IMG/VR virus record: IMGVR_UViG_3300024232_000017
Span: 1 to 51,759 of that record
Strand: one strand, 5' to 3'
Source: a virus
Lineage: Duplodnaviria > Caudoviricetes
DNA: 51,759 nucleotides
The translations under genes and the position numbers were made by a program. Below, piece by piece: positions 44,938-45,846 of this stretch. How positions within the stretch are numbered: position 1 is the stretch's first letter; each line of letters starts with the position of its first letter. The notes below the pieces were generated by a model, which was not told the origin of the DNA, searched no databases, and worked only from the letters and a program-made list of their open reading frames with translations.

Positions 44938-45465
44938 ATGACTCAAATAACAATTACCGAAGCACTTGCTGAGATTAAGACTGTCGGCAAGCGTATTGCT
45001 TCGAAGAAAGAATTCGTTAACAAATATCTCGTGCGGGTTGAGACGATGAAAGACCCGTTGGAGAAAGATGGAGGTTCTTCCGTCGTACTTTCTCAAGAAT
45101 TGCAAGCAATTGCAGACCTTGAGCAAAGAATAGTGAACCTTCGTCGAGGTATTCAACAGGCCAACGACGAGACCAAGCTGAATGTCGAAGGCATCGACCG
45201 TTCGATTACTGATTGGCTCACGTGGCGTCGTGAGGTATCGGAAGGTCATCGTCTCTTCCTGCGTAATCTCCGGGTGAATTTGGAGAATATGCGTAGTGCT
45301 CAACGTTCTCAGAGATTTAATTCTCAAACTGAGAAGCCTCTGGATATCATTGTCAACGTCGATGAGAAGAAGCTCGCCGACGAAGCTGAGAAGCTCGACA
45401 ATATCCTGGGTCAACTCGATGGACAACTTTCGTTGAAAAATGCAACCGTAATGGTGAACACATGA
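44938..45465 (+). CDS. Coiled-coil protein (DIP1984/DUF6847-like)
   Basis: TITEALAEIK..KRI N-terminus, I..AN..T, LD..L...NA C-terminus; family call from memory. Confidence 0.65.
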   Translation: MTQITITEALAEIKTVGKRIASKKEFVNKYLVRVETMKDPLEKDGGSSVVLSQELQAIADLEQRIVNLRRGIQQANDETKLNVEGIDRSITDWLTWRREVSEGHRLFLRNLRVNLENMRSAQRSQRFNSQTEKPLDIIVNVDEKKLADEAEKLDNILGQLDGQLSLKNATVMVNT

Positions 45466-45569
45466 CATTCTGGAAAACCGTAGGTGCTGTACTGGTCGCA
45501 CAGTTGATTGGTACTTTGATTATCTTGGTCCCCTATGTCGTCACAATAGTTGTACTAGCGACTAAGTAG
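45462..45569 (+). CDS. Small membrane peptide (35 aa)
   Basis: ATGA coupling; MTFWKTVGAVLVAQLIGTLIILVPYVVTIVVLATK. Confidence 0.5.
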   Translation: MTFWKTVGAVLVAQLIGTLIILVPYVVTIVVLATK

Positions 45570-45576
45570 TTCCTAA

Positions 45577-45846
45577 AATAACCTTCTGCAGCGAAGTGAG
45601 AAAACTGTAGACAAACAAGTTTACTGGCCCTAAAACCAGTGCATCATTGGAGATGTAAAGAGGACTCGATATCCTCGCAAACTCAAAGCTCAACGTTCAG
45701 AGATCAAAGTTTAGGATTTCAACGTTCATAGTTAAGAGCTTAAAGTTTATCCAAACCCACCAATAATCTGGTCCATTTAGAAATAGATGGCACACGCAAG
45801 TTTACAAGCGTGTTCTCAGGATGGTGGCTGCTACACGGAGGTTATT
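45577..45846 (+). ncRNA. Candidate ~270 nt RNA with internal heptamer repeat array
   Basis: Closing helix AATAACCTTC/GGAGGTTATT, five internal hairpins, nine YTCARAG-like units at 45682-45745. Confidence 0.65.

Follow-up and report, generated by a model that had tools for sequence, protein, structure and literature searches.

Comparison of the element with described RNAs

The element treated here lies on the plus strand at positions 45577-45846 of the virus record IMGVR_UViG_3300024232_000017 (Duplodnaviria; Caudoviricetes), which is a complete virus record of 51,759 bases and is referred to as the window in the following. It belongs to a family of structured RNAs without a match in Rfam 15, it encloses a phased row of seven-nucleotide units and it resides next to a gene for a helical protein that is remotely related to DUF6847 and DIP1984. 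The closest working analogue is VIPR, which comprises phage-encoded vrRNAs with 9-16 YNNGG repeats followed by an invariant tail that contains a pseudoknot (bioRxiv 10.64898/2026.04.26.720920); Vipr protomers oligomerise along the repeats, and the variable dinucleotides serve as a noncontiguous guide (bioRxiv 10.64898/2026.04.26.720920; 10.64898/2026.04.26.720927). The RNA from the window is likewise phage-encoded, consists of short repeats with fixed and variable positions, has a folded and pseudoknotted part after the repeat tract (with helix P3 crossing P4 and P5) and adjoins a small conserved protein gene. The period is five in VIPR, with the unit YNNGG (GGY/NN), whereas it is seven here, with the consensus N-U-S-A-A-M-G. 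The VIPR protein is of the RAMP/RRM type with a G-loop and a thumb, whereas the conserved neighbour that we examined is all-helical and DUF6847-like. Furthermore, there is one RNA per genome in our case, the array is closed in a pseudoknotted ring that also holds a slot for tRNAs, and the variable positions draw on a restricted alphabet.

HutP and TRAP act on leader RNAs with NAG repeats, in which the sites are read one per subunit by a symmetric oligomer; for HutP, sites recur every 7 nt in two blocks. Unpaired short sites ending in A-G are also present in the window, and the two-block layout of the HutP sites resembles the four plus four units found here. The known cases are terminator-controlling leaders read by beta-rich ring proteins, whereas the element is a large folded RNA without a terminator switch that is accompanied by an unrelated helical protein. 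The array is enclosed by the fold, the only strong terminator-like site (46177-46212) follows 430 nt further on, and Pfam searches did not report a HutP or TRAP domain in any of nine local proteins.

Other points of reference are GOLLD and ROOL, the latter with a length of about 580 nt. These RNAs are phage-encoded, often located near tRNA islands and form RNA-only cages, while GOLLD often exceeds 800 nt and sometimes carries tRNAs inside its linker (bioRxiv 10.1101/2024.12.08.627333). The element resembles them as an ornate, pseudoknotted phage RNA of unknown function with tRNA genes nearby, and the tRNAs in the GOLLD linker recall those found in relatives of our RNA. GOLLD and ROOL differ in that they are without a heptamer array or a known protein partner, whereas the RNA described here is much smaller, is tied to one gene and did not match their covariance models.

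The end arrays of T7 DNA have also been considered. Inspection of the sequence showed short A-rich words ending in AAAG that are spaced by about 13 nt beside the terminal repeat. They have been proposed to be bound as DNA, their role is unsettled, and no covarying structure is known to flank them. Common to the two cases are an AAAG-type word and the setting in a podovirus with a T7-like replication module; the spacing differs (about 13 versus 7 nt). The element belongs to none of the Vipr-vrRNA, HutP and TRAP families. We file it among the phage RNAs that combine very short repeats with a folded handle and are tied to one protein gene.

A covarying RNA family without a match in Rfam

Relatives of the RNA were gathered through the protein encoded beside it. 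An alignment of 28 protein relatives led to 51 viral contigs, 15 contigs from metagenome-assembled genomes (MAGs) and 80 metagenome contigs (the best 80 of 208); some of the latter are, to judge from identical lengths, clearly the same records as viral contigs, meaning that the three sets of loci overlap. The first two relatives (59% protein identity) already feature the same RNA, with compensating changes in the stems and with the heptamer array retained. The RNA is 275 nt long in the window and measures 247-360 nt in 52 of 55 elements. Thirty-two relatives were aligned over their full length after a 5' motif and a 3' motif had been located in each of them. The existence of the family and its fold are nearly certain. 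The following features were recognised in the RNA:

45577..45846, plus strand: whole structured RNA element (alignments, covariation counts, fold z = -4.46, no Rfam match)
45579..45592, plus strand: 5' strand of closing helix P1/P2, partner 45830-45844 (14 pairs, 12 changed on both sides, 86.4% paired; one mismatch, one bulge)
45593..45596, plus strand: linker GAAG between P2 and P3 (G17 invariant; A18 and A19 conserved in at least 90% of 32 sequences)
45597..45601, plus strand: 5' strand of pseudoknot helix P3, partner 45814-45818 (5 pairs, 4 changed on both sides, 93.8% paired; crosses P4 and P5)
45602..45681, plus strand: variable slot, in the window with three hairpins in the minimum free energy fold, the last of them T-arm-like (5-bp stem, 7-nt loop, 45660-45676)
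45682..45745, plus strand: heptamer array of four units, an odd central U-rich unit and four units, consensus N-U-S-A-A-M-G (lag-7 signal, column counts)
45746..45756, plus strand: last partial unit and A-rich lead-in to P4 (alignment columns 370-372 are A in 31-32 of 32 sequences)
45757..45761, plus strand: 5' strand of P4, partner 45823-45827 (5 pairs, 4 changed on both sides, 96.9% paired)
45766..45769, plus strand: 5' strand of P5, partner 45819-45822 (all 4 pairs changed on both sides, 93.8% paired; one pair is U-G in 21 of 32)
45773..45790, plus strand: hairpin A, 7-bp stem with a GNRA tetraloop (GAAA, 45780-45783; all 7 pairs changed on both sides, 94.2% paired)
45792..45813, plus strand: hairpin B, 6-bp stem with a variable loop (all 6 pairs changed on both sides, 86.5% paired)
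45814..45844, plus strand: continuous 3' strand that pairs successively with P3, P5, P4, P2 and P1 (unbroken save for a 2-nt linker and a 1-nt bulge)

The predicted fold of the 275-nt element surpasses those of all 200 dinucleotide shuffles (z = -4.46). For the 3' domain, RNAalifold proposed 23 pairs, of which 22 show compensatory changes, and this domain alone is 92.5% paired as compared with 61.3% in shuffles. The full-length structure comprises 41 pairs in six helices. Across the 32 sequences, 90.6% of the cells are paired in this structure, as opposed to 66.5% after shuffling and 40-48% when the partner is slid, and the covariation score amounts to 0.709 versus 0.239, with none of 500 shuffles reaching as high a value. 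Changes on both sides occur in 37 of the 41 pairs, and every helix has at least four such pairs. Since P3 crosses P4 and P5, the core is a pseudoknot. U-G or G-U pairs are frequent, being found at four pairs in 26, 21, 13 and 12 of the 32 sequences. They would be A-C mismatches on the opposite strand, and the tRNAs embedded in some relatives are co-oriented with the element; it is therefore the plus strand that folds, most simply as RNA. The loop of hairpin A is mostly GAGA, GAAA, GCAA or GUAA among the 32 relatives, as judged by eye without counting.

A closing helix of 10 bp (45577-45586 with 45837-45846) had been part of the original prediction for this region, which was made from the letters of the window alone. 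This helix is present and extends inward to the 14-pair helix 45579-45592/45830-45844. All five hairpins that had been listed along with it were recovered: ACTGG/CCAGT (45623-27/45636-40), CATC/GATG (45642-45/45652-55) and GAGGA/TCCTC (45660-64/45672-76) reside in the variable slot, CCATTT/AGATGG corresponds to hairpin A (45773-79/45784-90) and ACACGC/GCGTGT to hairpin B (45792-97/45808-13). A further local hairpin near the 5' end (alignment columns 7-11/16-20), which would compete with P1/P2, can be formed in 82.5% of the cells, but its covariation does not go beyond what conservation gives (120 of 500 shuffles were as good) and it was excluded from the model.

When the whole window was compared with Rfam 15 at gathering thresholds no match was obtained, and at E <= 10 over positions 44400-48300 only two chance-level matches appeared, both of which lie outside the element. 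Nucleotide and protein (tblastn) searches in 50,697 GenBank phage records did not reveal a relative of the region or of the protein, and that collection thus contains no cultured member of the family. Literature searches for heptanucleotide repeats, DIP1984, DUF6847, ornate phage RNAs and surveys of structured phage RNAs yielded no description of the RNA, with the limit that the supplementary tables of PMC10690425 may list it unnamed. That article reports 8,495 candidate RNAs from IMG/VR that were left unnamed, and its main text does not contain the word stem 'heptam' (PMC10690425). A language-model survey describes one cluster of period 7, which stems from Patescibacteriota and has an inverted second array, i.e. 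an architecture unlike that of the phage RNA described here (bioRxiv 10.64898/2026.10.21.760802).

The heptamer array

The lag-7 autocorrelation of the array (0.59) is the highest of any 63-nt stretch in the window (mean 0.247, standard deviation 0.060). The next peak, 0.52 near position 49771, is coding sequence. Tandem Repeats Finder, run with a minimum score of 30, did not list the array because its copies are too divergent, and autocorrelation was used instead. The units can be placed in register unit by unit in the 32 relatives, where U2 is found in 19-31, A4 in 27-32 and G7 in 19-31 of the 32 sequences; C or G predominates at position 3, A at position 5, and A or C at position 6. In a set of 104 different arrays, T.A[AG].G was counted 3.93 times per 86 nt compared to 0.84 times in shuffles (4.7-fold), successive occurrences are spaced by 7 nt in 40% and by 14-15 nt in 22% of the cases, and the mean autocorrelation peaks at lags 7, 14 and 21. 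RNAalifold did not find a consensus pair within the array segment of the 32 relatives. The 7-nt array is therefore real and, by consensus, unpaired, just as had been suggested from the single sequence.

The array loop has a length of 78-81 nt in 27 of the 32 relatives. Fixed length and unit number would fit a partner of defined size to which each unit contributes one binding site. A single-stranded array with these properties and with phased base identity is what would be expected of a row of protein-binding sites read by such a partner, and is not what would be expected of a spacer or a sponge with variable copy number. We regard a protein-binding role of the array as about as probable as not.

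The variable slot and embedded tRNAs

ARAGORN identified a complete tRNA within the slot of 17 of 55 elements, at a distance of 38-59 nt from the element's 5' end. Their anticodons are those for Thr, Glu, Gln, Arg, Ile, Leu, Ser, His and Val, and two are odd. All 17 embedded tRNAs are encoded on the RNA's own strand. A canonical T-arm is present in the slot of eight of the 38 elements that lack a tRNA. In the window, ARAGORN did not detect any tRNA, and the slot of the window's element keeps only the T-arm-like hairpin.

The slot of locus L011 (approximately 2760-2900) looks like a circularly permuted tRNA, in which a T-arm and the 3' strand of an acceptor stem are followed by a spacer, the acceptor 5' strand and a D-arm; ARAGORN did not call it. 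Large tRNA clusters are located within 1-2 kb of the RNA in L020, L017 and L099, with 13 tRNAs downstream of it in L020, for example. These clusters echo the tRNA-island context of GOLLD and ROOL.

Linkage of the RNA to one protein gene

A covariance model, R1, was built from the 3' domain of the RNA and used on the loci. It matches 50 of 52 viral sources. In 46 of these the match has E <= 1.4e-6, in three near-identical loci the E value is about 0.002, and one match is cut by the end of the locus. The two sources that were missed comprise 238 and 66 nt after the gene, and one of them was later shown to contain the RNA at the other end of the same contig. R1 also matches 14 of 15 MAG loci, the missed one having 34 nt of flank, and 70 of 80 metagenome loci, with nine of the ten misses having at most 176 nt of flank. 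The tenth, L182, has 489 nt of flank and did not match R1. Absence of the array from homologous genes, which the original prediction had set as its refutation, was not observed: the RNA with its closing stem and 7-nt periodic array is present at every sufficiently flanked locus with the exception of L182. Identity of the proteins is as low as 32% among the linked loci.

Each locus contains one R1 match, which is always located on the strand of the gene, and five whole MAGs contain exactly one match each at the place already known. When 151 genomes of one bacterial class were scanned with R1, only the MAG known before was matched, and within this sample the RNA is thus not a cellular RNA common to the class. 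L042 and L054 have the opposite order, with the RNA ahead of the gene, and the two are still neighbours; in all other loci the RNA is situated downstream. Conservation of other neighbours was not found by BLASTP, a test to which remote homology is invisible: the largest cluster comprised 5 of 53 proteins upstream and at most 2 of 55 downstream.

The MAGs with which phage sequences of the family had been binned represent at least seven groups of bacteria. In L109, L111, L097 and L107 the gene-RNA pair resides on contigs of 100-274 kb that were binned with MAGs of Anaerolineaceae, Chloroflexia, Gemmataceae and Emcibacteraceae. Such long contigs may represent integrated prophages and would then point to hosts.

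The DUF6847/DIP1984-like protein

The protein encoded beside the RNA has 175 amino acids and belongs to a large family, as 1839 of 1949 candidates in the protein collection are relatives at E <= 1e-3. Its curated relatives are distant. The NCBIfam model DIP1984_fam (NF038048) reports the protein with an E value of 4.5e-5 and 23.6 bits, below the cut-off of 70, and Pfam DUF6847 (PF20935) gave no match to the window's protein at E <= 10, while it matches 14 of 28 family members at E <= 0.1, with a best value of 2.9e-4. An AlphaFold (AF2) model with a mean predicted local distance difference test (pLDDT) value of 90.4 and a predicted template modelling (pTM) score of 0.73 features four long helices and short edge strands. 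The best fold match found by Foldseek is PDB entry 3kdq (probability 1.00, E 5.7e-4, TM scores 0.48/0.54), a protein from Corynebacterium diphtheriae that we take to be DIP1984. With VIA, 3kdq reached a Z score of 11.2 over 152 of 152 residues and the next row had 8.7. Structure rows of the ESM Atlas, used as a lead only, fall into DUF6847, DIP1984 and Siphovirus Gp157 clusters. Compared with 3kdq and DUF6847, the window's protein has the same fold over its full length, but identity is 16-18% and the window copy stays below every curated cut-off. The earlier designation of the gene as DIP1984/DUF6847-like is thus appropriate for a remote relationship, given the 3kdq fold and the weak but consistent hidden Markov model matches.

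A sequence-profile search in the PDB gave no meaningful match, with the best (E 0.027) being a designed bundle, and PADLOC does not hold a defence-system model that matches the protein at E <= 0.1. The label of PHROG 1491, 'tail fiber protein' (E 9e-14), was set aside because the gene resides in the replication module and on the strand opposite to the structural genes.

Modelling of the protein with itself in four copies yielded a value of 0.63 as compared with 0.00 for the best control; the mark was calibrated on two copies, so that the benchmark counts (reached by 20 of 30 solved pairs and by 1 of 23 single chains) apply only roughly. The four-copy runs agree in at least 86% of the contacts, partner pLDDT is at least 82 and the modelled interface is two-fold symmetric. 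The models support self-association of the protein. The pass may reflect likeness to a solved complex, if one exists; 3kdq itself was deposited with several chains. Eight invariant basic residues (K14, K18, R19, K23, R64, R97, R98 and R119) are situated outside the modelled interface.

A putative ribonucleoprotein and competing explanations

Given these observations, we tentatively propose, holding the chain as a whole to be somewhat less than evenly probable, that copies of the DUF6847/DIP1984-like protein bind along the array and thereby form a ribonucleoprotein. The stretch 45577-45846 would be transcribed rightwards together with its operon. The 5' end and the continuous 31-nt 3' strand build the pseudoknotted core P1-P5 plus two hairpins, one of them GNRA-capped, and this core closes a large loop of two parts, i.e. 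the variable slot and the unpaired array of four, one and four heptamers. Each heptamer would offer one site to a copy of the protein, which would recognise the fixed bases U2, A4 and G7. The folded core would act as handle and cap; it would keep a set distance between the two ends of the array, and assembly could be nucleated or capped by it. As partner, the DUF6847/DIP1984-like protein encoded beside the RNA is the most likely candidate, because its gene is the only one that stays with the RNA. Any role of such a complex would presumably fall into the early or replication phase.

Several points weigh against this proposal. The protein does not contain a recognisable RNA-binding domain and has a net charge of about zero as counted from its sequence, a two-fold dimer interface does not by itself explain nine sites, and 3kdq, the nearest structure, is without known function. 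The protein may serve replication rather than the RNA, since helical DUF6847/Gp157-like proteins are common in phage replication modules according to the ESM Atlas lead. Moreover, co-occurrence was measured in one direction only, because the loci were collected through the protein. Pattern scans that started from the RNA gave only six true copies, all on protein-bearing contigs; fixed RNA patterns are too insensitive, with the best ones covering 3-17 of 57 known copies, and in two scans 4 of 7 and 32 of 35 matches were due to chance. A PF20935 search in 301 Bacteroidota genomes returned one gene, without an array downstream of it, a single case being too few to weigh. Finally, adjacency that is kept in a phage lineage can be plain synteny.

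Should the protein indeed bind the array, this would be the first function for DUF6847/DIP1984 proteins and a second, unrelated case of proteins lining up on very short RNA repeats, soon after the programmable complexes of VIPR. Strongly covarying phage non-coding RNAs without known function are rare leads in any case. This one is abundant in environmental viromes, as indicated by the 1839 members of the partner protein family, and combines three features not previously seen together, namely a pseudoknotted handle, a cargo slot with room for whole tRNAs and a row of nine short sites that are single-stranded, strictly phased and fixed in number. The RNA is also small enough for direct structural work.

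Of the competing explanations, the foremost, though in itself unlikely, is that the element is an RNA-only machine in the manner of GOLLD and ROOL, self-folding or self-assembling and tied to tRNA biology, in which array and GNRA loop would engage in RNA-RNA or tertiary contacts and the gene would be present by mere synteny. The elaborate core with its pseudoknot and conserved GNRA tetraloop would suit such a machine, as would the tRNAs in the slot of 17 of 55 relatives, the tRNA clusters beside L020, L017 and L099 and the precedent of phage-encoded RNA-only cages. The heptamers are, however, not self-complementary, consensus pairing was not found in the array, the tight linkage to one protein gene survives reversal of the gene order, and an RNA of 275 nt without a GOLLD or ROOL match in Rfam is much smaller than those. 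That the array instead acts as a decoy or sponge, titrating a host RNA-binding protein, a sequence-specific ribonuclease or a tRNA-directed defence enzyme through eight or nine preferred sites beside a tRNA-like module, appears a little less probable again. In line with it would be the repetition of a single short, unpaired motif, the tRNA or tRNA-like arm in the slot and the position of a phage-encoded RNA in an early-type operon; by resemblance alone, and in our own reading, Y-U-N-A-A-A-G also looks like a 7-nt anticodon loop with U33 and a purine at 37. A decoy does not account for the close tie to a phage protein, one and the same host target would need very wide conservation to be shared by at least seven bacterial groups, and sponges usually vary in copy number whereas the units here are fixed in number and order at 4 + 1 + 4. 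Improbable, in our estimate, is a cis-acting element of the operon transcript, i.e. a device for processing, stability or folding around an embedded tRNA or for 3' protection of the upstream mRNA. The element does lie within a transcription unit ending at 46177-46212, with no promoter-like site found just upstream, and in the tRNA-bearing relatives P1-P3 pair the tRNA leader with its trailer. Yet 38 of 55 elements lack a tRNA and conserve core and array even so, a stability element does not need phased conservation of single-stranded bases, and the downstream gene varies.

Marginally less probable than the cis-acting element is a programmable noncontiguous guide as in VIPR, in which the protein would hold the fixed bases while positions 1, 3 and 6 specify a target in a competitor or host. 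If pursued to its end, this would amount to a programmable-repeat system independent of RAMP proteins and separately invented in parallel to VIPR, with helical DUF6847-like copies that polymerise, clamp U2, A4 and G7 and expose positions 1, 3 and 6 as a noncontiguous code toward nucleic acid of a rival element or host, and we give that version the same low probability. The layout is indeed that of a vrRNA, with short-period repeats and an invariant pseudoknotted tail encoded by a phage beside a small conserved protein gene, and in the closest pair of relatives (L012/L050) all four differences fall into the array and none into the other 181 positions, three of the four being at unit positions 1 or 3. 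Four other close pairs, on the other hand, differ at 3/86 array positions versus 11/210 in the rest, 12/86 versus 18/164, 10/86 versus 30/199 and 15/86 versus 68/233, which means that in these four of the five close pairs compared, the array is not clearly more variable than the rest of the RNA. A position 3 of mostly C or G and a position 6 of mostly A or C make a poor alphabet for a free code, and there is one RNA per genome with a protein that is helical and not a RAMP. We consider it very unlikely that the heptamers are bound as DNA in a replication origin, a single-strand initiation signal or a packaging site. Residence in a T7-like replication module (primase/helicase, PolA, gp2.5-like SSB, nucleases) and the richness of the T7 left end in CCTAAAG-type words would agree with such a role, but strand-specific G-U pairs, the GNRA tetraloop, a covarying pseudoknot and co-oriented tRNAs point to RNA, a 7-bp period would set successive sites on different faces of the duplex, and the T7 words recur every ~13 nt beside the terminal repeat whereas the element is 6 kb away from the record end. 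Least probable of all is a toxin-antitoxin pair resembling type III systems, with the protein as toxin and the repeat RNA as antitoxin, an option that had been raised in the original prediction and that gained no support. A repeat RNA does adjoin a small protein gene, but the protein is a helical bundle without a PADLOC match at E <= 0.1, the RNA usually lies 3' of the gene (downstream in all but two loci) and not before it behind a terminator, and the pair occurs in lytic-type phage genomes. Repeats of known type III antitoxins, which lie upstream of an endoribonuclease toxin, are about 34-45 nt long, far longer than units of 7 nt.

Genomic setting and further observations

The leftward arm of the genome encodes structural proteins (terminase, portal-like adaptor, major head protein, tail appendage and internal virion protein), while the rightward arm contains a T7-like replication set with primase/helicase, family A DNA polymerase (PolA), gp2.5-like single-stranded DNA-binding protein (SSB), Cas4-like exonuclease and endonuclease I. 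The nearest cultured relatives of the polymerase are those of roseophages, with 34-38% identity. Six sequencing runs of soil DNA contain the stretch in whole or in part, and no RNA run is listed among those that contain it. RNA and protein gene are located in the rightward arm, 6 kb from the record end in the case of the element, in the order SSB (44050-44550), 387-nt gap, 175-aa gene, 35-aa mini-ORF (open reading frame), 322 nt free of ORFs (45570-45891), 90-aa gene and terminator-like hairpin. The features that flank the RNA are:

44938..45465, plus strand: gene for the 175-aa helical protein, a remote DUF6847/DIP1984 relative and conserved neighbour of the RNA (ORF, hidden Markov model, fold match)
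45462..45569, plus strand: hydrophobic mini-ORF of 35 aa, in ATGA overlap with the stop codon of the 175-aa gene and without conservation in the family (read from the sequence)
45892..46164, plus strand: downstream 90-aa gene, not conserved in the family (ORF; downstream neighbours cluster in at most 2 of 55 by BLASTP)
46177..46212, plus strand: terminator-like hairpin that closes the transcription unit (14-pair stem, then a T-run)

In most relatives the RNA begins 19-50 nt past the stop of the protein gene. A tiny hydrophobic ORF comparable to the mini-ORF is found at the same position in L011, and most relatives are without one. The 90-aa gene product did not match any Pfam, PHROG or NCBIfam model. 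A promoter-like site was not found just upstream of the element, the five matches in the region not exceeding shuffles (mean 3.7).

The G+C-rich gap of 387 nt between the SSB and DUF6847-like genes (44551-44937) is free of ORFs on the gene strand and is predicted to fold no better than shuffles do (z = -0.31). It is not common to the relatives, in which the corresponding gap is shorter and different. A second stretch of about 1.7 kb (46520-48200) lacks a convincing ORF on the rightward strand and did not match Rfam, GenBank phages (BLAST) or the relatives' loci. Near 47128-47146 it has a hairpin that resembles a T-arm, and at 47639-47692 an 18-nt sequence is present three times in tandem; the stretch may be the site of further non-coding RNA.

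A 138-aa ORF with an Endonuclease VII domain (Pfam PF02945, E 2e-16) is present on the plus strand at 42354-42770, in another frame within the 796-aa ORF for DNA polymerase A (41287-43677). It falls between the exonuclease-like part (residues 11-159) and the polymerase domain (residues 491-750), and the polymerase frame remains open across it. It could be a nested gene resembling those for homing endonucleases or a read-through insertion.

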